Shown: positions 4,285 to 55,272 of the stretch, in pieces
How positions within the stretch are numbered: the first letter of the stretch is position 1
Layout of the letters: the number at the start of each line of letters is the position of its first letter
Translations under genes and position numbers: made by a program
DNA from: Marsupella aquatica
Taxonomy: Eukaryota > Plantae > Marchantiophyta
DNA: 64,000 nt
NCBI GenBank assembly: GCA_973895155.1
Contig: OZ316897.1
Coordinates: 18,076,457-18,140,456 of the forward strand
Reading direction: 5' to 3'
Notes under the pieces: model-generated
The model's input: the letters and a program-made list of their open reading frames with translations, nothing else
Told to the model about the DNA's origin: nothing
Database searches by the model: none

Positions 4285-4640
4285 TGTTTTATCACTTGAC
4301 TTCTTTGTATCACTCAACATCCTTTTATCACCTCGACATATTTATATCACTCGACATTTGTTTATCACTGGACATCCTTTTATCACCTCGAGATCCTTTT
4401 ATCACCTCGACATATATATATCACTCGACATCTGTTTATCATTGGACATCCTTTTATCACCTTCAGTTGACATATTTATATCACTGGACATCCTTTTATC
4501 ACCTCGACATATTTATATCACTCGACATCTGTTTATCACTGGAAATCCTTTTATCACCTTGACATATTAATATCACTCGACATCTTTTTATCACTCAACA
4601 TCTTTTTATCACTCGACATCTTTTTATCACTCGACATCTT
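4285..4640. repeat. Subterminal 17-18 bp tandem repeat (TTTATCACTCGACATC-like) in the Helitron
   Basis: Visible tandem units immediately before the 3' hairpin. Confidence 0.9.
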
Positions 4641-11446: not shown

Positions 11447-12272
11447 ATTATTATTATTACTACTACTACTATTTTTTAAATTAAAATTTATTCCGCGTGA
11501 ACCCCACAGATGGGGGGAACCAGCAGGCCCAAAGGCAAAAGGGAGCCAAAATGACAAAGGATAACAGCCTTGAAAAGCCACAAAAGACAAGTGACCCTAA
11601 AAGGACCAGCAATCCCACACCACTACACAGATAATGCAATACATTGCACTAGCCCACCAGGAGCAGAATCAGCCAGCCTGAGTACTCACAGCCTAATACA
11701 GTTATCAGGAACATAGTCTTTCAAAGCCACCAAAAGTCACAGTCTACCAAGCGGGAGAGCAATACCCGAAGTCAGGAAACACTAGCCCAAAAGAACAGCA
11801 AAGCACATCGTCTCCGTCCAACAGCAATAGTAGCAGAGTTCAGCCACAACACCACTAACCCTCCTAAGTAGTAAATCTAATCCCCCTTTGGGGTATCCAT
11901 CTAATCCGGATGTAGTCTACAATTTCTTTGGCACGGAGCAACCGGGTGTGCTTCCTACCAGGAGGAGAACATCTCCCAGCCGCAATCAACATGTCTGCGA
12001 CCTCAGATAATACCAAGGAGAGGTCAAAACTTCTTTTCTTCCTATGATCAAATGTCTGTTCATTCCTGCCTAGCCAGATCGTCCACAAAACCTGGTATAG
12101 AATGAAAGCCTTCAGAGTGCAAATGCAATCCCGCCCAACAGTGGAGTCCAGCAAGGGAAGAAGGGCCACATGGGGCCAGTTGAACCAGCCAGCCAAACAG
12201 TCCTGTGTTACCTGCCAGCAGTGCCTAGCATGTTTGCACTCAAAAAAGATATGGGGAATTGATTCCCCATGA
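11447..12272 (-). mobile_element. Heavily 5'-truncated LINE (zf-RVT/C-terminus + 3' UTR + (TAG)n(TAA)n tail)
   Basis: ESIPHIFFECKHARHCW and LYQVLWTIWLGRN are homologous to the end of 8030..9439. TSD TAGGTG(G/A)ATATTATT at 11432-11446 and 12273-12287. Confidence 0.9.
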
Positions 12273-14532
12273 TAGGTGAATATTATTGATCAGGTGGCAT
12301 AGAAATGACATCAAACAGTTGTAGACATTTGCACTAATCTATTCTACATTAATGAACATCAAAATGACTCAAAATGATTTTTGTGATGAAATAAATTATG
12401 TATGTTGCAAATGTTATCATTGGGCATTGGCAATACCGAATTTCCTGGTGGTTCTAAAATTTGTCATTTTGCTAAGGCTAGCCAAAGACACAACAAAACT
12501 TTTGTGCCATATTTAACATACAAATTCACCGGTATGAAAGGGGTTGTTGTGGGCTTTGAGGGGCGCAGTTTGCAGAATTCAATTGAAACCAAACAAAAGA
12601 AATCCCACAAGAAAATGCTTAGATGCACAGATACCACAAAGTGGTAAAAGGCATAGGCAAGTGTTATTGGCTGTTAACCAAAGCTTGATGACAAGTAGGA
12701 GAGGCCAGAAAGCTAGGATAAGCAATTTTTTCCAGCTGTGTATGAAGTGATGCAATCAGCTAGACTCCAGAATTAACCAGTGTAAACTGATATGTGTTTG
12801 TAAAACCTCCGACCATGGCTACAAGAACAAATACACAATCAGTGATATATTGAACTGCCATTATATATAGCATACTCATCCTGGAACATGAAAAGTTATT
12901 TTGTCCTCTAGCAAAAAGTTTAAATTTTTTAGTGAAATATAGGTGATCTGGTTTTTTGTGGCAAATATAAATAGGACATTGATTAGGAAACGTGCTCGGG
13001 GGTTTCACTTCCATGAAAATGACATATCATGTGCGACGAAGGATAGGGCTGATTTATTGGTTCTAAGGGAAGACTTAAGAATTTTTGCAGAAGAACAATA
13101 GGGTCTTTTAAATTCAATTTTGAGACTTATAAGAACATTAGGGCCCTTTTAATCTAATTTTTGGAATATTCCAAGAATATTCCAACTTTATAGGGGTTAA
13201 AAAATAAATATTTTTTCTTATATTTTAGGGGGTCCAAGGCCTAAAAACGTCACAGGTGATGGGGAGGTCCCCATATAGTGAGACCCCCGAGGAAACGTGA
13301 TATTGAAAAGTTGTGCACATAAGGTACAAGAATAAAAATACACATGTAAAGAAAAGTAATAATGAACATGAAAAATTTAAGTCTATGGTATTGGGTTCTG
13401 CACATACTATACACCAGTAAAGATAATGACACTCAAATGAATTAAAACCATAAATTTAGGACACAAAACAATGAGTAGAACTTAAAGACATGAGGAGTGC
13501 ACTTTAATTAGATCATTTCTTCTTCACTAAGGGCTAGAACTTCCGTGAGCTTTGTTAAAGGGTGGATGATCAAAAGTATACCAAAGATTGAAAAATTTAG
13601 AGGGGTGTCGGATTAAATTCAAAATCTAAAGTATACAAGGGATGTACCTTGGTAAGACACATTGAATTACAATACACAAGAAAAAAAGTTTGAAAAAGAC
13701 AAAATACTGGAAGATGGATTCACCATATAGCAGTTTCATTCTGGATATCCACTGAACTGCCACTCACCAGGTCAAACCTGGGAATATCCTTGTTTCTCAC
13801 CAATGGTTTCCTTACAAAATGATATTTTGGGCAGAAACCAAGCCAAGCCATTGGATTCCCTTACCCATTTTCTCCATCATGGGATTTTTGAAAATGACAT
13901 ATTGTGACCCCTCTATGTGCCCCGTTGCTTGCCTTCCCATCCAAGAAGTTCCACCTCCATTTGCCCTCCCCATCCATTCAATCACCCTGACCCTCAGAGA
14001 TCCAGATGCGGCCAATGCCCAAATGCCACCCTTGCCACCACAGCCATGCCTTGCCCTAAAGCCCACCTCACAAAGCCAGGCACAGCCCACACCCTGAGCG
14101 CCAACCTTACTTGTCTCCCCTGCATATTGCCCAAAAGCCCGCCCTCTGCTTCAAAGGGTACTTTTTGCATCAACAACATGGTTGCAACAATTGTTTAACA
14201 ACCTAGCATTGCATGTTGCAACATTTGTGCACCACCCTAGCATTGACCTATTATTGAAAGACCATGTAAACATAGAGACGCCCTAGAAATGTACATTGGT
14301 GGAACCCCTCTTTGTGGTACAGGAGGGGCCTTGGAGAGGTGGTGCAACATTCCTTGTACTCCTTGGAAACCCATAATTATCATTCTCTCAAATACTCTTT
14401 TGCACAACAGTTGCTTGTAAGGTCCAGTAGCAGCAAAACCCAACGCTTCGACAAGTATGTCGAACATTCTGCTCATCCATGGCACAGAGGAATGAAAGCA
14501 GCAAACTTGAGACCTGAGCGTCGCACTCGCAG

Positions 14533-15064
14533 CTAAAACGATATGATCCAGCCGAAAGCATACTCCTCTCTCTCGCCGAACAGCTTCCCATTCTTTGCTT
14601 TGATCTCCTCCTTGGGCATCAGAGCCAGCCACTTGCCCGTATCAGCTCCTTCCGCAGCCTTCTGGCGGCTTAAACCCCCCTTTTAGCGCTGAGGCCAGCA
14701 TGTCGGTGTTCACCAATCCGGGGCAAAATCCCACCACGTAAATTCGGTGCCCCACAGGCTGAGATTTGGCAAATTTCTTCGCCAAGGTGATTGTGTATCC
14801 GTTCATGAACATCTTCGACTCGTTGTAGATCGGCTCCTTCAGCTTGGGACACTCGTTTGGGCCCACGATCCACCCTTCCTCCTCCATTCGTCCCGCCTTG
14901 CTGTCCTCGAGGTACTTCGCAGCCAACGAGTCCATCAGCTCCACGGAATAGCTCTCCTTGTCCCGGAATTGCTTCTTCAAGCTCTCTCCCAGTCGCTCGT
15001 AGAGCGCCGCTCTAGAGGAAACGTTGACGATGCGTGCTCCGGCCGGGGACCAGCTGACGACCAT
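14533..15064 (-). pseudogene. Carbonyl reductase/neomenthol dehydrogenase-like SDR, C-terminal fragment with frameshift
   Basis: SPAGARIVNVSS, catalytic YNESK, FCPGLVNTDM. After a frameshift near 14658 it continues EGADTGKWLALMP...GKLFGERE...stop. The Rossmann N-terminus is absent. Confidence 0.88.
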
Positions 15065-15837
15065 AGCATCATGCTGAAACAGGCGTTGTCGGATACCTTT
15101 AGACTCTGAAGATTGTGTGTCTTAACAGTAGTTTATTCATGCTTGTGTTGGAGCTGAGGTTTTGGGAGGCAGTACTGTGGAGCACCTGGAATCAGCAAGG
15201 CTACGAGCTGTTCAAGCTAGTTATCAATAAGCCTCCTCGTGGCAGACGGTCCTTAGCGTGGTGCCAATTTCCAAATGTCGTAGTTGCTGCATAAGCCCAG
15301 ATGGTGAAAATTTGATTTGGACGATGTCTACCTGCAAATAGCTCTGTGGGAATTTACCAACCCGTCTTTATCATTCGGGGAGGCTGAAGGCTCGCTGGTG
15401 TTAATTAAGCAAGACTCGAGGAGATTCCGTGGAACCATCACTGTCTGGCTGAAATGGCAACACGAGCAACTTGGTCGGCGAATCCAGAAGGCTCCGTGGC
15501 ACATCGGCGGGGAATAACCACCCACCCCAGCAGCCTACAGATCAAGCAGGCTCTAACAATCAACCACGTCCATTACTACTTATCGTGTCTTCATCTACTT
15601 ACTGCATGCCATTCCGTTCATGGCTATCTGATCCCTGTTGTGATAACTCTTCTTTAATGGCGGGTCTTTCCTAATAGCGGGTCCAACAAACCAGGGACTC
15701 GACCTTCAAATAGTATTCGTGATGGTAGTGTACATCATTTGGCGAGACGAGGTGTTGCAAGGACCAGATGACACAAACATTCAAAATAGTCTGCCTACGC
15801 AATCAAATGGGTACTCGGCAGGAGCTTCTCATTTTCA

Positions 15838-18800
15838 GCAATCTACTACTTTGGTGCATCAAAGGAGGGCAACAACAGCCCTCCTTCTGGGGAGTTTCCC
15901 TTCTTGTCATCCATGACAAGCATTGTGTGTATCCAAGATCCTGAACTGTTTGTGTAAGCAGATAATCGGTGGAGCTTACAGATTGCTTGGTGAGATAGCA
16001 ATTAGTGACCTCCCAAGGTTGTCTGGTCCCGGTATGGCTACTAAAACCCACGATGACTTTTGTGCATCCGTTCTGGAGGAAGAGAAATCTGGCTTTATGG
16101 AATGAATGACATACCGCAACACAAGATTGACGGGAACAATTCAGTAGTGGCATCTGCAGCTCCCATTGTGACAAGGGAGTGCAATCCCAGCATTGATTGG
16201 CATTCATCCAGTCGACTCCAGTGACAATTGGCCTGTGTACAAATGCTGCCAAGTTGTACCAATTGATTCGCTAGGGTTGGACAACAAATGTTGAACTTGT
16301 CAAAGCAGGGATAACTCAAGACAGCCCAACATGGTGTCTTGAGCAAGAAAATTTCCAAGTTGCATAAAATAAATTCTGAACATATTTTTCGATGGGATCC
16401 TGGGCATTTCTCTGTTCCAACTTATCCAGGCCTCTCCCGTCACTGTATATCGTTGGCGAATGCATCTCTCAGCCAAAATGGTATATAAGAATTGGACACT
16501 TTTGTTACCCTCGTTCAGTATAGGAAATGATCAGGGAGCCTGGATAGCCACCGGTTGGGATTTGATGTTGTTGATCATTTTTAAAAGCAAGAGTGCCAAC
16601 TGAAGTGCGGAGCTTCAAGTTACAGCTGTGAATAGCCGCTGTGCAGATGGCACTTGTGCACATGGTATTACCTCAGAAGAACTTGATGAATGATTATCAG
16701 AGCCTAATATGATACGTGGGTTCAACATTTGTTTGTTTGGAATCACTTTACATCGTTCTTCACATGTTTTTGGAGAGTTCTTTTTATTGCATCAACTCTG
16801 GCGTCGAGTCAATGCACTGGACGTGTGTTAATTGGGAACCTTTTCTCCTGCTACGGATCCCGTGGTTGACAATATTGATTTATTATCGAAAGGCAACTGA
16901 ACCGGACCCCTGCACAAGGTCTCTCTGTGAGACTCCAAAGTCGTTTAATTCTCGTTGCCTGTTCTTTTGAGGTATGAAATATCAGGAAAGAGTCTGTTAC
17001 GCAAGAAGCCACAACAACACCTCGTCTTGCAGCAGCACAACTCAACCGTTGATCGATGGTGACCTTTGTATTTGAAATATTAAAATTGCTCGAGTACGAG
17101 GTCGTTCTGCATGGATGTATCGCAGGTAAACCAGCGGAGACCAAAACCGAAATTCTCCGAATTGTTAGCATGTCAAGAATCAAAAGTAAGAGTCAATCGA
17201 ATTATCTGTACAACTGGCAATTCGAGTTGGACCTACAGTTCGGACCTACAGTTTAGGGTTTGTTTTTAGTTTCCTCGGTTAGGGTCATTTCTTTCCTGTT
17301 TTTAAAATCGGAAAGCGCTTTTATTTCTATCCCAGAAGACAGGATAAGCTGTTTCATGGGACTGTCATCCTTTGTTCACGGGTTGGTCTACATTTGTTTA
17401 GGAAGAAAAAAGATGAACTCCGGTTTATCGCAGTCCAGGATTACCAACTACCAACCCTAAACAACATCACTGCCGGTGCCAGGGATTTTGATTTTTCTCC
17501 AGTTGAGAACCACGTGCATACCTGCGTGCATAAGCATTCCAATCCGATCACTCAAGAAGGGAGAGCAACCTACGACAATATAGTGAGCCTGATCTATGCA
17601 GGGAAGCGCACCTGTGACGTCACTTGTACAACTGGCCACGCTGTGATATTTGACATCTCTTTCCTGTTGATTATGGTCCGTCTTGTGATGGACAGGAGGC
17701 TGTTGGCGACTTGCAGGGAAAGGCGAAGCATTTCGAGTTGGAAGTGACGGGCTCCAGCGTACATGATCGGAGCCTACGTTCAATGAGAGCAACGAACTGA
17801 TCAGGAGCTATTCTTCCAGGTGAGAGTCGAAAGTAATGTTACCGATCCTGGGAAATTGACAGAGGTAGTGATTACACGATGCGTAGGAGAAGGGAGAACC
17901 TTCCTAGCTCGACCGTCATCCATTGTATCTAGAGGACTTGGGCGTAATGTCTAGCTGGACAGATTCCATGGGCAATTGTCTTAAAAATACACTCCAAGCT
18001 AGAAAGAAATAGGACTGTAGAATCCAGTGAAAGGTCTACATGCGTCGTGGCCGGTCGCTTGTTCAGGAAAACGTGTGATGCGTACAGATTCATGCAAATT
18101 GACCACGGCGCAGGAAGCTGAAATTTGGAAGGGAGTCTCTTTGTGCTAGCGCCTTCCGTATACCCGCTCAAAAACATATCATCAGTGAATTGGTTCAACG
18201 ACAAGGGCAGCTGAATCTTCCTTTGATTTGCAAGTTGTTAAAAATTGGGTTCAAGATGGCTGTAAGTAGCAGCTACTGGGATGAAGCAGTGGCAGTCTAC
18301 TACTTCGGTGCAATCTACTACTTCGGTGCATCAAGGAGGGCAACAACAGCCTTCCTTCTGGCGAGTTTCCCTTCTTCGTTATCCATGACCAGCATTGTGT
18401 ATATCCAAGATGCTGAACTGTTTGTGTAAGCAGTTAATCGGCGGAGCTTCCAGAATTCTTGGTGAGATAGCAATTAGTGACCTCAGTTCCCAGGTGGTCT
18501 GGTCCCGGTATGGCTACTAAAACCGATGAATTTTGTGCATCCGAACTGGAGGAAGAAAATTCTAGCTTCGCGGAATGAATGATATACCGCACAAGATTGA
18601 CGGGAGCATTTCAGTACTGGCACCTGCAGCTCCCATTGTAACAAAGGACTGCAATCCCAGCATCGATTGGCATTTCAACCAGTGACAATTTTGTCATTGG
18701 CATGTGTACAAATGCTGGCAAGTTGTACCGATTGATTCGCAAGAGTCGGACAACAAATCCCTGAACTTGTTAAAGCAGGGATAACTTGGACAGCCCAACA

Positions 18801-21800
18801 CGGTGTCTTGAGCAAGAGACTTTCAAGTTGCATAAAAAACTGAAAATAGATTTAGATGGGATCCTGGACATTTCTCTTTTCCACCCCAAGATGTTGGGTA
18901 GTCCAACTTATCCAAGCGTCTCCCGTCTCTGTATATCGTTGGGCCTCTGTTCAATGCACCTATTCGCCAAAATGGTATAAAAGAATCGGAGACTATCGTA
19001 AGTCAAACGATGGGCACCATAATTGAGTATAGAAAATGATCAGGGAGCCTGTATAGTCAATGTTTGGGATCGATGTGGTTGATTCAGTTTTAAAGCAAGT
19101 GTGCGAACTGAAGTGCGGAGCTTTAGGTTACAGATCTGAATAACAATGCAGTACCGCTTTATGGGTGTCACTTGTGCACATGGTGTTACATCAGAAGAAC
19201 TGGATGAATGATGATCAGAGTTCAACACCTGCCGTCTTTGAATCATTTTACATTGTTCTCACATGTTTCAGAGCGTTGTTTTTATCACATGAGAGATTGA
19301 CTTTGGCGTCGAGTCATTGCACTGGACGTATATTAATTGGGAACCTTCGTTCGTGCTACGGATCCCCGCTGGAAGCTAGATACTGGTTTATCACGGAAAG
19401 GCAACTGAATCGGACTCTTGAGACTCGGACTCCAAACTCGTTTATTTCTTGAGATATGAAATAGCATGAAAGAGTCTGTTACGCATGATGCCACACGAAC
19501 AAGTCGTCTTTCAGCAGCAATGAAGACTTGCCTTCCTTGGTCAATTCCCCCTTCCATCGGTTGGGCCACCTTGATCAGTTTCCTTGTCGATCATTTGCGA
19601 CCAATCTTCTCGATCAATTTCCTGTTCATCTGTTCTCAACAATTGAACATAAGTGATCAATTACAGTGACCCTTTTTGACACCAGGACGTGAATTATCGT
19701 GTAATGATATAACAGTGTCCTGCTCGAACAAAGGTGAGATGACTTCTTTTGTGCAAATGACGTCAGATCGTTTAATTAAATAAAACTTAGCTCCTTTCTA
19801 TGCTGTCATTTGCTGTATTTCGAAGGTCGTGAAGTTAAAATTCTAGGTTGCTGCTGATGTCACGGCCGTTGCGTGTTGAATTTGTCCCCGTGTCACAAGA
19901 CAAGTATCCCTCATCGGACAGTGCGATTCATTGCTGGGATGGGGGACTGCTTGATCGCTCCACTGCAGTCTCAGTTTGAATGCTGGGGTCGCTGATCTAA
20001 TCAGAGATATCCTTGTCGACGAGCTAAAGGGAACCCTGGTCTCCTCCATTCTTTGAGTCATGTTAGACTTTCGAATGTAGTGGCGGCAATCAAGATAACA
20101 GTTGGGAACTGTTAAAGAGTGCTACGATGCTCAAGGATAATTACACATCTGGGTTTCTGCGATTGTGATGCCGCGTCACAACTCAGCCGTTGATGGTGAC
20201 CTTTGTATTTGAAATATAAAAATTGCTTGAATGACTTGGTCTTCTGCACGGACGTATCGCAGGTAAAGCAAATGATACAGACCAACGCTTCAGAAACCGG
20301 AATTTCCCTGAATTGTTAGCTTGTCAAGAATGAAAACTAAAAGTCAATCGAAATATCTGTACAACTGGTAATTCGAGTTGTACCTAGCTACAGTAAGCAA
20401 CGTTTTCGTCGTGGAATCGTGCACAGTTTGTTTTGGTTCCCTCACTCAAGATAAGCATTCAAGACATTGTGGGCTATGAGATGCCACCCAAAACTAGAGC
20501 TTCTATTCCAAGTTTGAGCTACTACTATTTTTGTTGTTTCCCTCCGCTTTTCACAATTCAAGATTAACCCAATGAAATTTCATGCAAATTGAAGTTTTAC
20601 TTGGTAAAAAGACAAGTAAAGAACAAATCTCAAAATGCCGTGCAAAGCCTTATAAGATGGGCATTCTCTTCCATAAAGTATAGAGAAAAACCTTGAAGAG
20701 ACTTAAATGAACCTACGTTCACGAATCTGTAATTCATTGTTTAGTGGGTGGTTCAAGTTTCAGAGAAATAAAAGGTCTACACTTTCAGACAAAAAAGAAT
20801 GACGACGTCCGGTTTGTCACAGCCAGGGCATATCGAGTAAATAAAGAAGATAGCTAATGAGAACTTGTTATTGATTTTTGACACGTCGTTACCACCTGAG
20901 CACGGCAATGAAAGATAGAACCAGGAAAGCTGTAATTTATTTAATCGAGTACACTAAGTCAGTTCAAAAAGACATTTGCTTAGCCTGAAACCTCGCTTTA
21001 ATTGTCATTGATTGCTCCCCGCTCCTGCATAGGAAATAAGAGTTTTAAACTTCGACGGGACAATTAAAACGTGAAGTACCCTGGCTCTGAAAGTACATCC
21101 AGTGCCGATCCCTGTCCACTATATATAAGCTTGTCCATGACCTGTCACTGCAATTTCTGGCACGCGGTCTGTACAATTATTTCCCAGGTTGATGATTTAG
21201 TTCATCCCAGCTGGACCATGCTTGAACCGTACTATAGGAGCACAGTCCGTTGGGGAGGTTCACAAGGTTGTGGATAGTTTGGTCAACAGGAATTTGCCTT
21301 GCAGCCCTTACCTGCTCACTTGGAGTCGATCAAAAATATACTTGCACTTGGATCGGAAGGCAAAACGAAGCCATTTGTCTCTGAGTCTCTGTGCGGGGAG
21401 CGAGACCATTAGAGAGTCCTCGGCACACTCTCCAAAATAATGGAAGCCGAATGCTACTTGTTTCCGTCTGGACTCGTTATGTGGTTAGCTGCAAGCAGAA
21501 ATTATAAGTTCAGAAGCTGATTGTCGTCTGAGATTGTACACACGCATAAAATAGGACGGGAAACGAGATGTAGAGACTGTTGATGAAGTTTATTTACACC
21601 GAGGGTCCAATGTATTCCCCTTGGTACAGCCAAGTTTAGTCTCTTGGTAATACACTGTCAGCTTCAGATCCCCTTCTGGATGGAGCCGAGCTAGTACATA
21701 CAACTTACGACACTGTCACAACCACCATTGCGTTCACAGATAATAATTCTCTTCATAATCACGAGTGGCCCGAGTCGAAGCCAAAACACTCGTTCCAGTC

Positions 21801-22322
21801 GACGTTTTGCTCTTACACAAGATCCAATAAATGCTCTGTGGTTCATACGACACTTGACACGCTCAATTGTGTTTGTTAGGCCTAAAGTCTCGAGCTGGTT
21901 GGTGAGTTTGATGGATTGCTCAACCTCTTGTCATGTGATCAAATTTTTCTCGAGTGTCAAGGGTCCGTTGCTTCCGCTGACTTTTCTTTTTGACATCTTT
22001 TATTCTACCGACGTCACATGTACGACTTGCCCCGCTGTGATATTTGAGATTTTTCTGGGTAGCTGTTGATTATGATCCGTCTTGTGGGCGACTTGCAGGC
22101 AAAGGCGAAGCATTTCAATTTGGAAGTGACGGGCTCTAGCTTACATGATCGGAGCCTACGCTCAAAGAGAGCAACGGACTGATCAGGAGCTAATCTTTCA
22201 GGTGAGAGTCATAATTCATGTTACCGATCCTAGAAATTGACAGAACTAGTGATTACACGATCGACCGTCATCTAGGGTAACTAGAGGACTTGGTCCTGGA
22301 GTTTAGCTAGACAGATTCCATT
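15838..22322. repeat. Older diverged local duplication of unidentified sequence (about 15838-17970 vs 18310-22322, the second with insertions)
   Basis: Colinear blocks such as ATCTACTACTT.GGTGCATCAA, GATGGTGACCTTTGTATTTGAAAT and TACATGATCGGAGCCTACG occur twice. Boundaries are approximate. Confidence 0.8.
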
Positions 22323-22818
22323 CGGCACTTGTCATCCCCACAAGACAAAGAAGCTTGTGGACTACTTTCGAAGCTTTGCCGGCCAGATCGAGCTGCCCGA
22401 GTCCTGTTTAATAGAGAACCCCCCATAGTCACATTGCGGGGCTGCGCACAGTTTATTCCTACCGCTCGGAGATATCGCTGTTGTTTGGTAGTTGTTCCAT
22501 CCATTCCATCCGTCTGTCGCTTGGGAATCCATAGCCCATCAGCTTCGATTTCTGATGACGTGCGTGTACTTGCGACCAATGCAATTGCTGCTTTGGACAT
22601 TGAAATTGGTCATGGCCAAATGTTTTACTTGGTGATCTATATTTTCAAAATATTGATCTGGTCGGACTGAGCAAGAGGTGCTTCTTGTACTAATATTGAT
22701 CACAGTTTCGATTCTAGACGATAGAAAGTGCTCGCTAACCATTGCGTTGCTAAGTAACAGTTCTGTTCTTGTTCCTCAATACGTCAAGTACTCAGAATTG
22801 ACCGTGGTGGGGTACCAC

Positions 22819-23159
22819 TGTTGTATCTGTGGAAGTTTTCAGATGATTATGAAACTTGATTAACGTAAGGCACAATAGTGCGTTTAAATACATGAATGGA
22901 GTGGGGTCCAAGTGCGTGAGCAAAGGAAAACGACAAGTAAACTCTGACCAGGAATATAAGTAGTTGAGTCAGTCTAAGTGGGCGCAGCCAGATAGGACAG
23001 AAAGAGGATCAGAGTCAAACGGGATCGACCAGACAGCCTACCGACCGGCAGCAAGCTCAAGGTAGTCAGTAAGATCCGATGCAGCCAGAGTGTACAGTAA
23101 CCACATCTGACAGCGAGGCATGGGAGCAGGCAAGAGACAAGACCGCGTGAGTTTCAACA
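22819..23159 (-). repeat. Copia 3' LTR (341 bp)
   Basis: TGTTG...CAACA termini, directly abutting the PPT. Confidence 0.8.
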
Positions 23160-23170
23160 CCTCCCCTCAA
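23160..23170 (-). promoter_or_regulatory. Copia polypurine tract
   Basis: TTGAGGGGAGG immediately before TGTTG on -. Confidence 0.88.
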
Positions 23171-23172
23171 CC

Positions 23173-23778
23173 ATGGCTCGCAAAGATTCAGGAGGAGAGT
23201 GTGCTGTGATAATTATATGGAACGTCGGTATGGTAACTGAATCTATCCAAATCAAATTTTGTACATTGGATAGAAACCACCATGGCGCAGGAGGAGATGA
23301 CATTAAGGGAATCGGCGATGTCACTCGTTCTTTCCTTGTTGGGATTTATCTCAGCATTGTCGCGAAGTGTTTAGGGTTTAGGGTTTATGATTACCTAGTG
23401 TGTAATCATAGTGATTCATTAGGACCGGAGGAGAGACCCCTTGGTGGGCAATCGGAAGAAACACCTATTGAGCCGCAGGCAGGTGCATCAACGGAGACTG
23501 ATCGAGCTAGGGAGCTAATAGTCCCTGTAGAGCCAAGTGCTCCAATGTATAAAGAGGAGTCCCGTCACCCGTTGTCAGGAGAAATAGTGAGAGTTTTCTC
23601 AGAAGAGCTGCCAAGGCGATACTATTCAGTGGCTCGAGGCCGACGTCCAGGGATCTATACGACTTGGGAGGAGGTAGAACCCTTAGTAAGTGGCTTCCGA
23701 GGCAATAAGTACAAGTCTTTCAAGACTCGGATAGAGGCCGAGTTGTACTTAAAGAAAGAGCAGGCTAGAGCTTTCTAG
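23173..23778 (+). CDS. Antisense ORF inside the Copia; C-terminal RNase H1 N-terminal hybrid-binding (Cauli_VI-like) domain
   Basis: YYSVARGRRPGIYTTWEEVEPLVSGFRGNKYKSFKTRIEAELYL fits the YYxVxxGxxxGIYxxWxE...VxGFxG..YKxF...EA pattern. The true start codon is uncertain. Confidence 0.85.
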   Translation: MARKDSGGECAVIIIWNVGMVTESIQIKFCTLDRNHHGAGGDDIKGIGDVTRSFLVGIYLSIVAKCLGFRVYDYLVCNHSDSLGPEERPLGGQSEETPIEPQAGASTETDRARELIVPVEPSAPMYKEESRHPLSGEIVRVFSEELPRRYYSVARGRRPGIYTTWEEVEPLVSGFRGNKYKSFKTRIEAELYLKKEQARAF

Positions 23779-23864
23779 GTGGAGAAACTGACTATTGACA
23801 CCAGTTAATCGTGGGATGCTGTAAGACAATCTCAGAGCGATGGAGATGTATCAAAGATGTGTTA

Positions 23865-26800
23865 TCATCGTAGTGGTAGCAGCTTTGCCGACCTCATTCC
23901 TAATATATCTCTATTTCTGAGAAACTTTGCTTTGGATAATGATTTAGTCAGAATGTCGGCTACCTGGTCTTCTGTTTTCACATGATGCACTGAAAGTTCT
24001 CCCTCCAAAACTCTTTCACGTACAAAGTGATGGTGAATTTCTAAGTGCTTTGTCCTCGCGTGGAAGACTGGGTTTTTGGCGAGCTTAACAGCGCTCATGT
24101 TATCGCACCTCAAATGTAAGTCTTGAAGGGATGGCACTGCAGCTTGCTCGAGATCAGTTGCTATTCCAGTGTTTTTACATTTGACCTTGGTAGGCAAGGA
24201 TGTCTTACCAACCAGTTCTTCGAGTAATCGCTTTAGGTACACACCTTCTTGGGCGCCATCTGAAAGTGCCTTATATTCTGCCTCCGTAGTCGATCGAGAC
24301 ACTGTTGGCTGTCTTTTGCTGCTCCATGTGATGGGACCTTCAGACAGCTTGAAGATGTATCCTCCGGTGGATCTTCGAGTATCAGGGCATGAATTTCCCC
24401 AATCAGAATCTGTGAAGCCTTCGAGATTAAGTTGACTGTCTCTGCTGTAGAACACTCCTAGATCCAAGGTGCCACTAATGTAGCGCACGATGTGCATGGC
24501 TGCATCTAGGTGAGCTTGTTGTGGTTGACTCATGAATCTACTCACCAGACCAACTGAGAAGGAGATGTCTGGACGAGTGTTAGTTAGATATATGAGTTTA
24601 CCTACCAACTGACAATAATGTGTAGAGTCAACATCGGGGGTGTAGGACTCCGATGATAACTCAAGGCCTTCTGGAAGGGGTGTGCCCACTGGCTTGCATG
24701 TGTCCATTCCGTAGTCTTGCACAAGTTGGTCAGAATAGTGTTTCTGATGCAGTAGAATCCCTTTTTCGGTGACTAGGAAATCAACTCCGAGATATCTTTT
24801 TGTTTCTCCAAGATCCTTCATCTCGTACTTGGCCTTCAGTTGCTGCTTCAGTTCTTCAATAAGTTGTACTCCGCTGCCTGTGATTAAGAGATCGTCGACA
24901 AATAGCAGGATGATGGCAATTTTTCCTCCTTGTTGTAGGGTGTATAGATTTGGATCTAGGGAGCTACGTATGCATCCAATTGACCTGAGAAATGAGTCGA
25001 CTTCTTCATACCAGGCCCTTGGACTTTGCTTTAGTCCATATATTGACTTTCTAAGTCTGCACACGAGTTTTTCTTGACCAGGAGAGAGGAACCCGGGTGG
25101 CTGCATCATATAAATGGTTTCCTTAAGAGTCCCATTGAGAAATGCAGTGACAACGTCCATATGTGATAATGGCCATCCAAACGCAGCTGCAAGTGCCACA
25201 ATGAGTCTGACAGTGGACCATTTGACTACCGGGGCAAAGGTCTCTTCGAAATCTAATCCTTCACGCTGTTCGTTTCCTCTAGCGACTACCCGAGCTTTGA
25301 ACTTAATGTTTCCTGCTTGGTCAAGCTTTTCCCGAAGGACCCATCTAGCTGATAGTGCTCGCTCTCCCAAGGGAAGGTTGACAAGTTCCCAAGTGCCATT
25401 TTTAAGATGAGCATTCATTTCAGCTTGCATGGCTTCCGTCCAACGGGAATCAGAGAGAGCATCTTCTACAGATATATTGTCGATGGAGTCAGCTAGAAGA
25501 GCTAACAGGAGATGCTCAGTAGTTTCGGAAAGGTATGTTGTGAAATCAGATAGCCAATAGGGATGAGATGTGAGTCGACTGGAGGGTGGACGTGACCGCT
25601 GGAGGAGACGTTGAGTAGCACGTTGTTTTGCACGACGAGCTTGACGTGGTTCAGGGACAAGCGGTGGATCAGTGGTGGAAGCAGATGTGTCCTCGTGGGG
25701 TTCAGGCTCGGGATAGTCAATCCTGCAGTGAGGAAGATTTGGGGATGTAGACTCGGTTGCTGGTGTGGAGTCGGTGGCTGTTGGTGTTGGAGGAGAGCCA
25801 GTTGTTGATGGAGTTGAATGTTCGGCTGGAGATTGCAAGTGGTCAGGTTCATCTTCAAGTGGAAACATATCGAGAATGCTCTCGTAGGTGGTGGCTTGTC
25901 CCGTTGAGAAGTCTCCAAGAGTTGATTCGTCAAAGACCACATTTCGGGAAACAAGAATTTTTTGAGAGATCGAGTCAAAGCATCGATATGCTTTGCTGTG
26001 GTCATCGTATCCAACAAGTATAGTACGAATGGACTTGGGTTGAAGCTTGTTACGCATCTCCTTTGGAACATGAATGTGAGCTATGCTTCCAATGATACGG
26101 AAGTGGCTGACATCAGGTTTGGTACCGGTGAGACATTTTGTTGGTGTAGAGAGATGTAATGCACGAGTGCTGCATCGGTTGTTGATGTGATTAGCCGTTT
26201 TGACTAATTCTTCCCAGAGAAAGGCTGGAAAGTTTGAGCCTATTGAGATACTCCTTACTATATCTAGAAGGGTGCGATTTTTACGTTCGGCGACTCCATT
26301 CTGATGAGGAGTTCGAGCTACAGTAAATTGCCTTCGTATCCCATGTTGCTGACAAAATGCCATGAATAAATCAGACATATATTCTCCGTCTCGATCGCTT
26401 TGTAAGCATTTAATTTTGGTGCCTAGTGAGTTTTCGACTTCTTGTTGGAAGATCTTGAATTTTTCCAAAGCCTCATTTTTGGACTTGAGAAAGAAGACCC
26501 AAGAATGTCGAGAAAAATCATCAGTGAAGGTGATGATGTACCGGGCCCCAGAGAGAGCTAGGACCGGTAAAGGACCACAGAGGTCTGTGTGAATCAATTC
26601 CAGAGGTTTGGTGGCGCGAAAACTTGCTGATTTTGGTACTCGGTGTCGAGACTGCTTGCCTTTCACACAGGGCTCACAGATCATTTTGCTGACTGGAAGA
26701 TTTGATGGAGCTCCCGTGATAAGCCCGTTTTGAGTCATGTAGCTGATGCGCTGATGACTAGAGTGACCTAGCCTTTGGTGCCAAAGTTCAGATGGAGACA

Positions 26801-28062
26801 TCGATGGAGGTTCGACTAAGTGACACTGAGCTGACATGCTGGGATGTGCTAATTTAGTGTTAGCTAAATATTTGTCCGGAGAGACGACAGGCAATTTGAG
26901 CTTATATAATCTACTATGAGGGTCTCTGTAGCCTTTGAGATAAGGCTGTGAGGGTCTCTTGGGGTCATAGACGTAGCATCTACTGGAAGTAAATAGCACT
27001 TGATGACCCTGATCTGTAAATTTACCAACAGAGAGTAAATTCCTTGTAATAGACGGCACGTACAAAACATCACGAACAGATTTATTGCCAGGAAGAGAAA
27101 TACAGCCAGATCCGGATATGGGCATTTTAGAGCCATTAGCCGTGAGAACATTAGACGTAGGGGTGCTGCTGATCAGATTAGTAAGGCTACTACGATTGCG
27201 ACTTATGTGAGCTGAGGCTCCGCTGTCGATGATCCAGGTCTGGTCATCAATGCCTGGAGCATCAAACTCACTGAGCATGGCCTCAATCGTAAGTGAGGAT
27301 TTGGGCTCACTGGGTTCGCCAACGTCAGAGTTGTTGTCTCCGATGTCTCCCTCAGCAAAATATGCTTTTGGTCCAGGAGCAGCCTTGATGTCTCTGATCT
27401 TGGAATGTAGGTCCTTCAGCTGAGATACGGACATTGTCTTGATCTCAGTGTCTGCAGCTTTGATGAAGCAGTCTGCTTCCCAGTGGCCTCGTTTGCCACA
27501 GAAGTTGCAGTTGCGTCGATCTGCTCCACCTTCGTAGCCTCTCTGCTGTCTTGCTCGATCGTGGCGCCCTCGTCCTCGCCCACGATGTCCTCTGCCTCCT
27601 TCTCCACGTCTCTGGTGAGCAGAGGCCAGCATAGACTGCTCGCTGCCTTCATTGCTTGATTTGCGACGAAAGTCCTCAGCCTGTAGATATTCTTCCAGAT
27701 CTGCAAAAGTAGCTAGAGGGTCCTTGGCATACATGACACCGTAAGCTGACTTGAATGCTGACCAGCTTTTAGGTAGATTTCTCAACACAATCTGGATCAG
27801 TTCTTTATCGTCAACTTCCTCTCCTACACTACCGAGTTCCATCACATGGTACTCGATCTTTTTGAGGTAGTCCTCGATAGAGGACCCTTCACATAGGCGA
27901 GCCTCGACTAGTGCAGACTTGAGGTCCAGTTTGCGCTGGATTACAGAAGACTCATACTTCTGTTTAAGTGTTGCCCAGAGTTTGGCAGGATCACTCCGCA
28001 GCCTTCTAACAATAGGGACAATGGAATGATGAACAGTTTTGGTGAGAATAATGATTACCCTC
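23865..28062 (-). CDS. pol: Copia Gag-Pol polyprotein, open but N-terminally truncated
   Basis: CNFCGKRGHWEADC, WIIDSGAS, WHQRLGH..CEPC, HTDLCGP/TDDFSR/QNGVAER, YGLKQSPRAW, LFVDD, TDSDWG, CDNMSA, ADILTK. Confidence 0.95.
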
Positions 28063-28091
28063 AAAATATTTGGATGACTCACCTTCGATAT

Positions 28092-29477
28092 TGTGGTATG
28101 GGTGTCCCTGCAATTTTTTCTGGAAACTTGTTTATTTTTAGCATATCACAAGATTTACTTACACTTTAGACACCTTCCGGCCAACATTTACTTGTTCTGG
28201 ACACTTATAGAAATATTTGACATCTCCGGCTTTCCTGACGATTCCTAGTGTACTTTGCCCGACGCTGTGACCAGCGCCCGTTTCTTTTACTCAAGACGCT
28301 GCGGAAGCGTCCAACCTCCTCATGACGCTTTTGGCAGTGCCCGACCGCCACCAAGACTCTATGAGGATTTCGACCGACGCTGTGGAAAGCGTCAGCTTCA
28401 ACACACGACGCTGTGAGCAGCGTCCACCCTAGTAATGACGCTGTGAGCAGTGTGAGCAGCGTCCGTTGGTTTTACTTAAGACGCTTCTAGCAGCGTCCAG
28501 ATTCTCCCGACGCTTCTAGCAGCGTCCGCTCAACACTTAGTTTTTGAAGTAGATTACTAGTAAAGTAGTATTCTACCACCCTTGTTGAAGTACTTATGCT
28601 GTGCTTCTCCCTTGTTTAGTTTTAAGCTTGGAAAGGCACGACTGTTCTTACCTCCTCCATTTTAGGATTCCAGCACTTATAAGACAGAGTAGAATGCTCA
28701 TTTGAAGTAGAGAGAAATAGAGTTAATACTGTATTCAGAATTGAGTCTTCTGAATAGTTTTCTCCTCCTTCCATTGTAACAAGGCATGCTGTGAGTGTTT
28801 TGTATGGAAGTAAAGCTATATTGATTGAAGTTAAGATTGAATTCAAGAGATTCCTGTGGTGATTGAATTCAGTTGCAGATTTCTGAAACTCGTATTGAAT
28901 TCACTGCTAGGCTTGCTTGCAGAGTCGGGATTCGCTAGCCAATTCAAGAATAGTTAATGATAAATGAGAAGTAAATTCTGATTCTCAGAGTAGTTAGTAC
29001 TGTTGCTTTGATTCTGGAATATGGTTTAGAGTTTGACTGAATTGCGTATCGCTGATGTCAAACCATGTTGACGGCATTTTAAATCATATCATTCATTTGC
29101 AATCAGAAAGCTTCTGCTTCATCAGATTGAGAATTCCATTATCATTAACCTTTGTGTTTTGAAGAGTGAGATGGATGAATTATGAGATAGATTTCATGTC
29201 TATACTGAGCCCAAATCCTTTCTGAAGGAGTGGCAGTAGCTTGTAGTCTCTAAATCCTTACTCATTTCTTCTCTAATTCATAAATCAGAAGTTCAGTTAC
29301 TTTGTTGTTTGTTTATTCGATTTTTTATTGAGAAGTGAAGTCAACATAGAGCTCAAGACTCTAAATCACTCGGAGTGATAAAAGTTATACAATTCATTCT
29401 GAAATCTGTTCTTAAAGGGATCGAAACCCTGGTTTTAGGTGAGGAGAGTCACTTTTGATACTTAGCACTATACGACA
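28092..29477 (+). repeat. 5' LTR of the nested element
   Basis: TGTGGTATG...TATACGACA, repeated at +4735. Confidence 0.97.
28261..28527. repeat. Array of 8 spaced palindromes GACGCT-N6-AGCGTC in the LTR
   Basis: Copies near 28261, 28295, 28324, 28376, 28407, 28437, 28480 and 28509, some degenerate. Confidence 0.85.
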
Positions 29478-29483
29478 TCTTTT

Positions 29484-29506
29484 TGGCGCCGCTGCCGGGG
29501 AACGAA
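29484..29506 (+). promoter_or_regulatory. PBS, tRNA-Asp type
   Basis: TGGCGCCGCTGCCGGGGAACGAA, 6 nt after the LTR. Confidence 0.88.
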
Positions 29507-30695
29507 TTTAAGATTGAATTGACGTACAGGCAGTGTATGCCAGAAGGAGCTAGACGGGAGAGGAATTCACGTTCTACTATAATTGTGAAGATGCGTCATC
29601 ACTCCAGTTAAAAAGATGAAGAGCTTCCATTTCGAGGTGATGCCGTACTCTATCCAAAGCGCCCCGGAAGCTCTCTTAAGAGTATTGGAAAAATTTGTGG
29701 TGCCAAACTTAAGAGAAGAAACCGCCCTCCCACCAGAAAAGGCCTCACAGAGAGGAGCTGTTGCTCGTCAAGTTGCTTTGGAGATAGTCGAAGACACCAA
29801 AGACACTTTGAGTGACAAGTGAAGTTATTCTAACGTTGCTCGGGACGTATGATTTGTAAAATTGTCCAACCATCCTGGTTCGTGTGACCGATGCCACCTA
29901 TCCGATCTTTGGGAACATTAAGAATTAGGAATTTGAGGAATCGTTATGTTAATTCTTGGGTTCTGAGCCTGAGAGGGAGGAATGGCATACATTGGTTAAC
30001 TATCACCTGGTGGGAAGATGAAAGTTTGCATTTAGTAATATTAAGGCTGAATGGTAGGATCACACAGGAGTGATATTTAGTCATTTCCATTCGGGAGTTA
30101 GCGGAAAGAATCATGCACCAGGAATTGCGTAGAAGATTAGGAAGGAGTTAGACGTCTGATTAGTAGGATGGCCTAGTGTAGCGTACCATGTGGTAAAGAA
30201 ATTTCAGGGTGAAGGAAGTCGGAGATTATGGGGAACGCCCGGTTCCAGTAATCGCCACCGTAAAGGAGATAAGGAAGGACGCCGCGAAGAGCGTCCAATG
30301 CGATTCGTCCCAGAAGATTCCGCAAGTCAGGACGCTTCGAGTAGCGTCCGATCCCAGTGGACGCTGTGAGCAGCGTCCGGTGGAATCTGTGACGAACCAA
30401 CGTGCGCGACGCTTCTGGTGTGCCTTTCCGCGTCTCAACCTGAAGGACGCACCAGAGAAAACGAGGTTTTAGAATCTCGGCTGGTCACTGAAGGGAAGTA
30501 TTAGCTACGGGATAGCAAGGGGGAGGAATCATGCAAGGGATGTTGAACGACGCTACGGGAAGTCACTTTGAGGAAGCAGGTTCATATCTCCCGGAGTGGG
30601 GTGATAACGTCGCACTTAAATGGTGACTCCTTGCATAAAGACTCCTGAGGAGCGGGTCTGGTGTCTCAAAATCACCCGTGCTTGGAGAATGAGGG

Positions 30696-32749
30696 ATGTC
30701 TGAGGGAGATCCACCAAATAAAAGAAAACCTACCAAGACCTCCAGTAATTCGGATGCTGCAAAATTAGTAGTGACCCCTCGCACATTGTTACCCGAATTC
30801 CAGTCACCAGGAGCACCTGCACCGGGTAGTGTGTGGAAACAAGTGGGATCTATTCAAGAGGCAAGTGGCTCTTTGGAAAGGCCCACGTCGACCCGACCCC
30901 TGTTTGTAAATCTTCGTTCAGGTCCAAAACTTATTGGTTCTCAAAAGACCAAGCTCCGCCAGCAGACAGTACGTTCGGTGAACCAAATTGACTCTGGTGT
31001 GGATAGTACCACTGAGAGGGCCTTATCTCATACCGAAGGAAGAAATTTGGGTTTGCCCGAGAATACAGTTGCAGAATCGCTGGCCCAAGATAATTCTGTC
31101 GATCTTTCACAATTGGATAATCCAGAACCACTGAGTGAAGCCGGTGGTTCGTCTTCTAGTGAGACAAGCAGCAGTTCAGGCTTGGGCAGCCCAAACCCAT
31201 ATTGGTACCCGAGACACCCGCTTCGACAACCAGCTCAGCACCAGTTTCATTGGCTACAAACGAGGATAAAAACATTCGGGAGGAGTTTTCAGTGACGTAT
31301 ACTCGAAAATCTTGGAAACGGTTGCGCCATGCTATCAGTCGACAGATCTTTCCTGAAGCATCTTCCCAGGATTTTGAACAGGGAGAAGCACCTATCGGAA
31401 CAGACGAGCTACCCCTTCCTGTACTTTTGACAGATCGAACTAACCAGGAAGTCTCTTTACCTAGCGATAATTTTAAAGAAGAACTTCCTGTTTTAGTACC
31501 AATGCATCCCATTGCAGATCAACCAGCTACTGTTGCAAGAGAAGAATTTGAACCACTGGAGCCCGAACCTTCTGCTCCTTCGTCTCCTGTTACATTGCCA
31601 ATTCGACCAGTTAAGGAGTCAGTGATTCCTTCCGCTATGCCAGATGTAATTTTCCGTTGGATAGGAGCACCAAGTGATGGAGAAGAAGACGAAGACCCTC
31701 GCATTATCAGAGTACCTCCTCGACTTCGGCATACAGTGGATTTGCCACCCCGAAATCCTATCCCTAATTTGGCTTCAATTCACAGGTGGGAGAAGAAACA
31801 TTTTCGAGTAGCTTTTCGACATCTGGAGATGGAGAGCATTTTGCAGCAGCAGCAGATTTTGCCAATGACATCCCATCCGAGGATTCGTAGTTTGATTCGC
31901 ACATATGAACCTGGGAAGGCGGTTCCTCCCATTGATAAGGACAGACGACATAAGTTTTCGGAGTTCGAAATTTGGTGTTGGGTGTATATGCTTCGACGAG
32001 CTCAAGCTCCATTTCCGCCCCTTGTGCCGGAAATTCCATGGCCCTATCCATACTATGTTTGGGTTTGTCCTGGTGGGTTTGCTATTCCAATTAAATATGA
32101 GAAGAAGCTTGTTAAGCTAAGGGAGCAGTTGATTACAAAACAATGTATGCTACCGGCTTCCCAAGGGTTCAAGTCGCTTAGGTGTTTAGCGTTCCTACCT
32201 ATTATTCCTTCTTATCCGGATGTGATTATTCAAGGTGTTTTATCTAGGACACAGATTTGAAGGACACCATTTATGAGAGATATCAAACGGTGTTGTCATT
32301 TATATGTATATAAGCCGTTACTTTTGCAGCATCCTGCAATTGTTTCCTTCTTTCTCCTTCGAATTGATATTTATCTGCTCATGTGGGACATCAAAGCTAC
32401 TATGGATTGTTGGAATTCTTTACCCCGTGCTTTCCAACATTCCTTTGAAGGCAAGATCAAACTGGGAGGACATGCTATTCAACACTTTGTTATTGATCCA
32501 GGCTCTCGAATTAATTTCCTCTCCCACAGACTGTGCCAGCAATTTGTTCATCAAGAAGTACAACCGATATCTGCTCAGATATCAATCGATGGACGAATCA
32601 TTAATCTTTGGGGAAGAGTTAAAGGAGTCCCAATACAGATCGGAGAAGAATTCCATGACCTCGATTTTTATATTCTGGATTCGGATATCTCCCAACTCCC
32701 GTCAATGATTTTGAGCACTACTTGGATTATTAAGCCAGAATATTATTAA
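30696..32749 (+). pseudogene. Interrupted long ORF: Gag N-terminal-like module, unknown domain and retropepsin-like domain
   Basis: 30696..31295 shifts frame into 31202..32260, which is in frame with 32273..32749 across one TGA. The last part has FVIDPGSRINFL...GRVKGVPIQIG...LDFYIL...MILSTTW. Confidence 0.7.
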
Positions 32750-32813
32750 TGAAGAACATGTCACTCGCTTCTGATTCAATTCGGTCATGTCTTGTGGGGA
32801 CACGGCGAAATTT

Positions 32814-32823
32814 AAGTGGAGGG
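32814..32823 (+). promoter_or_regulatory. Polypurine tract of the nested element
   Basis: AAGTGGAGGG, 3 nt before the 3' LTR. Confidence 0.75.
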
Positions 32824-32826
32824 CTA

Positions 32827-34212
32827 TGTGGTATGGGTGTCCCTGCAATTTTTTCTGGAAACTTGTTTATTTTTAGCATATCACAAGATTTACTTACACT
32901 TTAGACACCTTCCGGCCAACATTTACTTGTTCTGGACACTTATAGAAATATTTGACATCTCCGGCTTTCCTGACGATTCCTAGTGTACTTTGCCCGACGC
33001 TGTGACCAGCGCCCGTTTCTTTTACTCAAGACGCTGCGGAAGCGTCCAACCTCCTCATGACGCTTTTGGCAGTGCCCGACCGCCACCAAGACTCTATGAG
33101 GATTTCGACCGACGCTGTGGAAAGCGTCAGCTTCAACACACGACGCTGTGAGCAGCGTCCACCCTAGTATTGACGCTGTGAGCAGTGTGAGCAGCGTCCG
33201 TTGGTTTTACTTAAGACGCTTCTAGCAGCGTCCAGATTCTCCCGACGCTTCTAGCAGCGTCCGCTCAACACTTAGTTTTTGAAGTAGATTACTAGTAAAG
33301 TAGTATTCTACCACCCTTGTTGAAGTACTTATGCTGTGCTTCTCCCTTGTTTAGTTTTAAGCTTGGAAAGGCACGACTGTTCTTACCTCCTCCATTTTAG
33401 GATTCCAGCACTTATAAGACAGAGTAGAATGCTCATTTGAAGTAGAGAGAAATAGAGTTAATACTGTATTCAGAATTGAGTCTTCTGAATAGTTTTCTCC
33501 TCCTTCCATTGTAACAAGGCATGCTGTGAGTGTTTTGTATGGAAGTAAAGCTATATTGATTGAAGTTAAGATTGAATTCAAGAGATTCCTGTGGTGATTG
33601 AATTCAGTTGCAGATTTCTGAAACTCGTATTGAATTCACTGCTAGGCTTGCTTGCAGAGTCGGGATTCGCTAGCCAATTCAAGAATAGTTAATGATAAAT
33701 GAGAAGTAAATTCTGATTCTCAGAGTAGTTAGTACTGTTGCTTTGATTCTGGAATATGGTTTAGAGTTTGACTGAATTGCGTATCGCTGATGTCAAACCA
33801 TGTTGACGGCATTTTAAATCATATCATTCATTTGCAATCAGAAAGCTTCTGCTTCATCAGATTGAGAATTCCATTATCATTAACCTTTGTGTTTTGAAGA
33901 GTGAGATGGATGAATTATGAGATAGATTTCATGTCTATACTGAGCCCAAATCCTTTCTGAAGGAGTGGCAGTAGCTTGTAGTCTCTAAATCCTTACTCAT
34001 TTCTTCTCTAATTCATAAATCAGAAGTTCAGTTACTTTGTTGTTTGTTTATTCGATTTTTTATTGAGAAGTGAAGTCAACATAGAGCTCAAGACTCTAAA
34101 TCACTCGGAGTGATAAAAGTTATACAATTCATTCTGAAATCTGTTCTTAAAGGGATCGAAACCCTGGTTTTAGGTGAGGAGAGTCACTTTTGATACTTAG
34201 CACTATACGACA
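32827..34212 (+). repeat. 3' LTR of the nested element
   Basis: Same length and termini as 28092-29477. Confidence 0.97.
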
Positions 34213-34217
34213 GATAT

Positions 34218-37200: not shown

Positions 37201-37478
37201 TGACAATTCCCACAGACTGGCGTGTAGCCTTCCTCCTGCCTAGGGTAGGGGCATTGAGGAGAATAGTGGTCTGGTTGACCACAGTTCCAACAAGAGCCCT
37301 TTGCTCGAGGTGCACCACGAGGTGGATATCCTCCAGGAGGTCCCATAGGTGGCCTCGGCACTGCTCGACCATAATTCGGCTTCGAAGATGCCCATGCTGG
37401 TCCAGGAGCTGGTTGAGGTGTCGATGGGAAATACTGACTTCCCCCAGGTGCTATCACAGCATAGGAATTATCAGTCAT
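34218..37478 (-). pseudogene. pol: Gypsy nucleocapsid-protease-RT-RNase H, disrupted
   Basis: Two CCHC knuckles, VDGGSSVNL/ILLGRPWL, LDGYSGY, MPFGLCNAP, IFIDDF, FTDAS, EREALA. Stops at 35959, 35893 and 34876; 2-bp insertion near 37105. Confidence 0.95.
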
Positions 37479-55186: not shown

Positions 55187-55272
55187 ATGGAGAAACTGAC
55201 TATTGACACCAGTTAATCGTGGGATGCTGTAAGACAATCTCAGAGCGATGGAGATGTATCAAAGATGTGTTA

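Follow-up and report, generated by a model that had tools for sequence, protein, structure and literature searches.

Does a short Ty1/copia element of a liverwort carry an accessory gene on its antisense strand, and what protein would that gene encode? The question is raised by a 201-codon open reading frame (ORF) in the interval from pol to the 3' LTR of a Copia element in the 64,000-nt stretch of Marsupella aquatica DNA analysed here (the window), which an initial annotation took for a gene on the opposite strand whose protein has a free-standing RNase H1 hybrid-binding domain (HBD). The features needed for the argument are listed below.

22819-23159, - strand: 3' LTR of the Copia element, 341 nt, TGTTG..CAACA ends
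23160-23172, - strand: polypurine tract (PPT), abutting the 341-nt LTR
23173-23778, + strand: 201-codon ORF of the initial annotation; most likely chimeric, with residues 1-70 differing from the family N-terminus and residues 71-201 holding the family linker and HBD
23282-23374, + strand, frame +1: family N-terminus (MAQEEMTLRESA..., ATG in ACCACCATGG context) and hydrophobic helix
23370-23383, + strand: two TTTAGGG units, 14 nt of plant telomere repeat, where the frames switch
23383-23616, + strand: acidic, Pro-rich linker (15 D/E, 6 K/R and 8 P in 71 aa)
23617-23748, + strand: RNase H1 hybrid-binding domain (PF01693), Pfam profile match
23865-28061, - strand: Copia gag-pol (gag, zinc knuckle, protease, integrase, RT, RNase H), with gag truncated on the 5' side
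54227-59469, - strand: second copy of the truncated element, with the ORF at 54581-55186 and telomere repeats at 54778-54791

As a reading frame, the ORF is real: its 201 codons are open on the + strand and the identical protein is encoded at 54581-55186. It starts close to the 3' LTR, with only the 13 nt of the PPT (23160-23172) between LTR and ATG, and it converges on pol without overlap, the pol stop at 23865 lying 86 nt from its own. This position, antisense between pol and the 3' LTR, is typical of the antisense additional ORFs known as aORF-3R. A sense-strand gene in the interval from pol to PPT was considered and rejected, as all three minus frames contain many stops. A bacterial promoter scan, irrelevant to this case, was empty.

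The host element has the domain order of a Ty1/copia LTR retrotransposon (gag-PR-IN-RT-RNase H, with an RVT_2-type RT) and the corresponding 3' end, an LTR with TG..CA ends and an adjoining PPT. The catalytic motifs of its pol are retained, and this pol is missing no component that other Copias have. Only one LTR per copy is present, no second LTR having been found in the window for either of them, and gag breaks off at about 28061, at a joint with a Ty3 element; a single LTR and a cut gag together imply an element copy that has no 5' LTR and no PBS. Paired LTRs, a PBS and a TSD, by which a complete copy is recognized, are thus absent from the Copia element of the window. The Ty3 element (gag, protease, RT, RNase H) is fused to Copia gag at 28061 and again at 59469. 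Because public contigs diverge at this joint and continue each element differently, a deletion there is likely to have removed the Ty3 integrase and 3' end together with the Copia 5' end. In the 1423-aa ORF at 55273-59544, the first ~26 residues are Ty3 DNA read off-frame.

Both copies of the antisense ORF lie within a single segmental duplication of 17,975 nt (10118-28091 and 41526-59499, 99.8% identical) and did not arise from two insertions, so they are not independent. The initial annotation itself regarded conservation between the copies as weak evidence. The copies differ at seven positions over 22400-28091, none of them inside the 201-codon ORF. The duplication also holds a short-chain dehydrogenase exon (14642-15121) and LINE fragments.

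The C-terminal part of the ORF contains the RNase H1 N-terminal domain that had been recognized there at first sight. A profile search matches PF01693 (Cauli_VI/RNase H1 HBD) to residues 149-192 over the full profile (1-44 of 44) with E 2.4e-18 and 66.5 bits, compared with a gathering score of 21, and sequence matches in the PDB include the yeast (1qhk) and human (3bsu) HBDs. At the positions of human W43, F58 and K59 the window has W, Y and K, with S at that of K60, and the net charge of its HBD region is +7. The acidic and proline-rich linker described ahead of the domain is also present (23383-23616). The catalytic RNase H domain PF00075 is absent from the ORF and from eight homologues, so the protein is not an RNase H1 enzyme, and a domain search of the ORF gave no TRP28 match.

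The N-terminal half of the ORF is a different matter. The start at 23173 does not agree with the homologues, whose N-termini match frame +1 from ATG 23282 instead. The best homologue, P0003, can be aligned to the 201-aa ORF only from about residue 54 onward; its residues 1-23 correspond to frame +1 from 23297 (15 of 23 identical), while its C-terminal part corresponds to the ORF frame. P0008 (a cluster mate of P0003) and three further clusters (P0049, P0118 and P0134) open with MA[QRH]E and then a hydrophobic helix; in the window, translation from ATG 23282, in ACCACCATGG context, gives MAQEEMTLRESAMSLVLSLLGFISALSR. A profile of these four N-termini, built without the window sequence, matches the frame +1 segment in both copies with E 3.9e-8 among 2351 sequences, among which the 201-aa protein is unmatched. 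The helix is conserved over four clusters at 27-60% identity, and the hydrophobic stretch FLVGIYLSIVAKCLGF pointed out by the initial annotation is an off-frame reading of it. Frame +1 from ATG 23282 ends at a TAG (23372-23374) within the two TTTAGGG units, a tandem pair found nowhere else in the window except at its duplicate, 54778-54791.

The same 14 nt are absent from copies in two of four sequencing runs (X2 and X3); X1 and X4 have the window's 14-nt form only and X2 has both, the four runs being ones that may include the window's own source. Flank depth is about equal to element depth in X1 and X4, so the 14-nt allele may have been multiplied together with its flank, and depth is not to be read as copy number. 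In copies without the 14 nt, three of five differences are silent in the family frame and none of seven in the 201-codon frame; on the same five sites, taken from the differences listed, the contrast (3/5 versus 0/5) is not significant alone (Fisher p 0.17) and agrees with the homology. Frame and homology together indicate that the 201-codon ORF is most likely a chimera and its gene model wrong, the 201-aa protein being most probably an artefact that a frameshift at telomere repeats produced in a truncated element. The antisense gene copy in the window, frameshifted at the two telomere repeats, is likely dead. Of the claim that the ORF is intact in both copies, the letter-for-letter repetition stands, but the family frame is broken in each of them.

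The two exact telomere units at 23370-23383 may represent telomerase-type filler at a repaired break. TTTAGGG has been reported as the telomere repeat of the liverwort Apopellia (PMC12885004), and a GTGTTTA site resembling the repeat adjoins the pair in the window. More generally, a telomere-repeat insertion can create an ORF that is long but false, a lesson for annotation. Just upstream of the family start, an off-frame reading of 23237-23281 (NLSKSNFVHWIETT) resembles the residues of P0134 that precede its MAHE start (NLTKLHCIA), a resemblance that hints weakly at some conserved DNA element, for instance a splice acceptor. A speculative intron running from GTAAG 23069 to TAG 23271-23273 would take out the five ATGs that lie upstream (23079-23230) and make 23282 the first.

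One could argue that the 201-codon ORF is itself expressed, the 14-nt insertion having given the HBD a new hydrophobic N-terminus from ATG 23173. Ahead of the switch its frame runs through 66 codons without a stop, as in only ~1% of shuffles, although the ORF was picked post hoc for its length and some in-frame ATG is found in 25% of shuffles; the N-terminus of the 201-aa form reaches a Kyte-Doolittle maximum of 1.62, and the 14-nt allele is, as noted, the sole form in two runs and present in a third. Yet none of the seven differences is silent in the 201-codon frame, the window copy has no 5' LTR, and both copies come from one segmental duplication. We consider an expressed chimera markedly improbable; it would be compatible with any of the roles discussed below.

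If the reading frame is broken here, is the gene kept elsewhere? A 2713-nt contig found in runs X1 and X4 carries 23609-23752 with 27 of 144 letters different, collinear with pieces of pol in which 38 of 237, 72 of 398 and 68 of 305 letters are different. Identity in this contig is thus 81% for the HBD and 78-84% for pol, whereas the DNA flanking the HBD on both sides cannot be aligned at 80%; with the HBD and pol pieces alignable and the flanks not, the HBD forms an island in sister elements, conserved to the same degree as pol. A further joint, 23741-23914, is present in runs X1, X2 and X4. In a variant contig, seven of eight HBD differences fall at third positions (among the differences listed, 40 of 783), and six of seven changed HBD codons are silent compared with ~27% expected (p ~0.002, for these eight sites among the differences listed). 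Retention at a pol-like level of conservation was found for the HBD part only of the antisense ORF.

At the protein level there are seven clusters of homologues with one HBD each, 103-251 aa long and all taken from Logan, in which PF01693 is the sole Pfam domain; they are the single-domain matches of highest identity, from sources that include the best 150 of 2699 matches. Four of the seven have the N-terminal helix, and the other three are shorter and without it. A full-profile PF01693 match above the gathering score was obtained in eight of eight homologues. The window and the seven clusters form one branch relative to 50 other HBDs (SH-aLRT 97), in a tree of only 52 columns, its rows selected by means of a profile of the family itself. 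Outside the family the tree lacks the resolution to point to a donor of the domain. None of 94 HBD loci (24 metagenome and 70 viral) showed Copia pol or the family N-terminus, most of the metagenome matches being prokaryotic RNase HI genes, and a pol scan of the viral contigs found nothing. The seven homologue clusters probably share the Copia context, with which their two longest contigs (5467 and 5180 nt) agree, the others being 1.3-2.9 kb long. An atlas search with P0003 returned basidiomycete Cauli_VI clusters as neighbours (0.91), a lead at the level of the domain only, and a query with the P0118 N-terminus gave no usable match. Elsewhere, in P0073, P0083 and P0130, HBDs are fused to PIF1 and UvrD helicases, where by their domain composition they would serve other enzymes as a hybrid-targeting module.

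These data bear on one alternative, that the segment is a functionless captured fragment of RNase H1 or of a caulimovirus, or a separate small insertion. The gene is broken in the window copy, and PF01693 has also been captured by a fungal Helitron (capE, PMC4289320). But HBD DNA is conserved like pol and its flanks are not, the silent-site bias argues against a passenger, and the N-terminal helix is kept in four clusters of divergent sequence. An insertion with its own TSD, named at the outset as an observation that would count against the gene, was looked for and rejected: there are no terminal repeats and no TSD around the segment, and the longest inverted pair is 16 nt at 81%. A passenger is thus hardly probable at all, and the initial proposal of a stand-alone HBD gene, non-standard for Copia, is borne out by its retention in sister elements with a silent-site bias. 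We hold the anatomy and family-level conservation of the antisense HBD gene with good confidence.

The pol gene places the element in a group of its own relatives. Its closest pol matches are the Logan protein P0157 (73-75%) and P0158 (66-68%), from Calypogeia fissa, the nearest named relative, and pol proteins of Riccia sorocarpa and angiosperms reach 48% or less. By its pol relatives the element is likely to be that of a liverwort host. In a quick tree of 46 rows the window groups with P0157, P0158, P0160, P0162 and P0163 (support 99) in a six-row clade. Between EAEY and CDN, its RNase H has ~24 extra residues (55 versus 31; residues 1285-1346 of the ORF at 55273-59544). The insertion is common to P0157, P0158, P0162 and P0163, four of the five clade mates, and on alignment can be taken as a marker of this pol clade.

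What, then, would the family protein do? The family product would be a protein of ~150-165 aa made up of a hydrophobic N-terminal helix, an acidic linker and one HBD, with no nuclease domain. It would be translated from ATG 23282 on an antisense transcript from the 3' LTR, the presumed source of the promoter (a putative TATAA lies at 22955 on the + strand). In the AF2 model of P0003 a confidently predicted helix spans 3-43, a middle part that corresponds to the linker is predicted to be disordered, and the HBD superposes on human 3bsu with an rmsd of 1.3 A. In human RNase H1, W43, K59 and K60 are described as the hybrid-binding surface (PMC6846478); among eight family HBDs the W, K59 and an aromatic F/Y are each kept in seven, and K60 in none. 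This kept W/aromatic/K surface suggests binding of hybrids without cleavage, and the ligand would be the element's own RNA:DNA intermediates of reverse transcription. The helix is mildly amphipathic; its 19-residue Kyte-Doolittle maxima are 1.9-2.1 in three of four clusters and 1.1 in P0049, so that by composition it may be hydrophobic enough for a membrane anchor in three of the four. It could attach the protein to a membrane, to itself or to Gag at the site of particle assembly, which is the weakest step of the proposal. So anchored, the HBD would hold the hybrid, keep host RNase H1 off it and add a substrate grip that the element's RNase H is without.

That the antisense Copia accessory gene encodes a product binding the element's RNA:DNA intermediates seems to us nearly an even call. 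The specific job of an anchored, non-catalytic binder shielding those intermediates from host RNase H1 is a reasonable possibility that leans towards doubt. Against it, K60 of the human binding surface is not kept, no packaging motif pointing to particles was found, and since the element's pol is complete relative to other Copias, an extra hybrid grip is not obviously needed.

The same domain evidence (Pfam match, fold and kept residues) is also compatible with a nuclear R-loop reader that would bind chromatin hybrids at the element's own LTRs, acting on transcription, or at target sites, acting on integration. Chromodomains steer integration of chromoviruses in a comparable manner. The products of the Grande antisense ORF are nuclear (PMC7264820), TRP28 of Retand is predicted to bind DNA (PMC11963269), and a bryophyte Copia can be site-biased, as is RLC5/Bryco in Physcomitrium centromeres (PMC12885004). 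A strongly hydrophobic N-terminal helix, however, suits a membrane or an oligomer better than a soluble chromatin reader, and the window contains no centromeric marks. We regard the R-loop reader as rather unlikely. More broadly, it is conceivable, with doubts prevailing, that in a Copia lineage of liverworts an anchored reader of RNA:DNA hybrids, expressed separately, has become fixed and either guards the hybrids of reverse transcription from host RNase H1 or steers integration to R-loops.

Caulimovirus P6 (TAV, transactivator/viroplasmin) offers a parallel, being the separately encoded, non-catalytic HBD protein of a reverse-transcribing element (PMC5902531), and it was named with the initial suggestion that the gene could shield dsRNA or hybrids from silencing, taken here as protection of dsRNA from Dicer by a silencing suppressor. 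The ORF would be covered in full by both genomic RNA and an antisense mRNA, which would pair into dsRNA, a situation discussed for other antisense ORFs (PMC7264820), and the P6 motif binds hybrids and dsRNA in vitro, but the analogy is weakened by the report that the domain is dispensable for RNAi suppression by P6 (PMC5902531). The family protein has one HBD per chain, and its likeness to P6 is confined to that domain, with whole-chain TM-scores of 0.30-0.36. HBDs, moreover, favour hybrids over dsRNA. A dsRNA shield is accordingly quite unlikely. The dsR domain of P6 also has protein partners (TOR, eL18 and eL13, PMC5902531), which would allow a host-protein-binding module, or else a self-limiter of copy number acting through blocked RNase H cleavage; an antisense gene with its own promoter would suit a regulator. 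Against this role, the nucleic-acid-binding W and K are kept in seven of eight family members and there is no homology to the remainder of P6, and we give it little probability. P6 is a sense-strand, multi-domain protein of 400-540 aa that shares only the HBD with the family, and neither the P6 comparison nor the HBD tree gave evidence of P6 as donor.

ORFs that run antisense in the stretch from pol to the 3' LTR have themselves been described, for Grande, RIRE2, Retand and PvRetro13, and their function in plant LTR retrotransposons is given as unknown in the cited sections (PMC7264820, PMC11963269). The gene described here resembles them in location, orientation, lineage-wide retention and proposed nucleic-acid binding; it differs in its host, a short Ty1/copia element with a pol-to-LTR gap of 0.7 kb compared with 2.9-6.6 kb in Retand, and in a domain of known biochemical activity, without a TRP28 match. 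With the N-terminal HBD of eukaryotic and bacterial RNase H1 it shares the fold (in the P0003 model, against human 3bsu) and the W43/F58/K59-type residues, but its HBD is single and C-terminal, behind a hydrophobic helix and without a catalytic domain, and K60 is replaced by S or A. Among Ty1/copia elements, SIRE (Sirevirus) also has an extra ORF downstream of pol with a hydrophobic stretch, the characteristic extra ORF of Copia; unlike ours, its ORFs are in sense (eORF-3'F) and heterogeneous, and the survey describing them counted ORFs of at least 250 codons (PMC6317226). The aRH of the Tat lineage and the AlkB ORF of orchid Gypsy elements are likewise fixed extra nucleic-acid-handling domains, but catalytic ones in Gypsy, the aRH within the polyprotein (PMC6317226, PMC9289625).

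At the level of abstract and section, a screen of 121 angiosperms lists 15 extra domains, all in Gypsy and none in Copia (PMC9289625). Five supplements of PMC6317226 contain no mention of Cauli or 01693; one Helitron gene of a fungus is reported to carry PF01693 (PMC4289320), and in the portion available bioRxiv 10.1101/572842 mentions the HBD for RNase H1 only. We found no Copia element with PF01693 or an HBD in the open-access literature. With extra domains confined to Gypsy in the screen and ORFs below 250 codons ignored in the survey, short bryophyte Copia ORFs are perhaps an overlooked class. What is new is an antisense accessory ORF in a Copia element combined with a domain of known ligand, and since ligand and binding residues are known, the function of an antisense ORF becomes testable with one point mutant. 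If the proposal is true, the gene would encode a split-off targeting module of RNase H1 and, among plant LTR elements, would be the first case of an antisense accessory protein whose substrate is defined; it would form a functional parallel to P6 that arose in Copia, and would suggest that host RNase H1 or R-loops are one of the fronts in the conflict between hosts and retrotransposons.

The surroundings of the locus are rich in other mobile DNA. Copy 1 carries an LTR element insertion at 28092-34212, with 1386-nt LTRs differing at one site, TG..CA ends and the TSD GATAT. No RT ORF of at least 100 aa was found in it; a weak protease match lies at 32273-32749, and over 83 aa its ORF 30696-31295 shares 49% identity with the N-terminal part of the gag ORF in the adjacent Ty3 element. 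By these similarities the insertion is likely to be a very young non-autonomous partner of the neighbouring Ty3 family. The stretch 34213-38721 recurs at 59495-64000, and positions 1-2493 hold, in inverted orientation and with small indels, a further copy of the 1.4-kb LTR family to which the LTRs of that insertion belong. It is followed by a 19-nt tandem repeat (~2500-2690), by 55-nt repeats (4190-4650) beside a helicase-like ORF (3745-4092), and by fragmented LINE-type RT and zf-RVT ORFs at 6647-9439.
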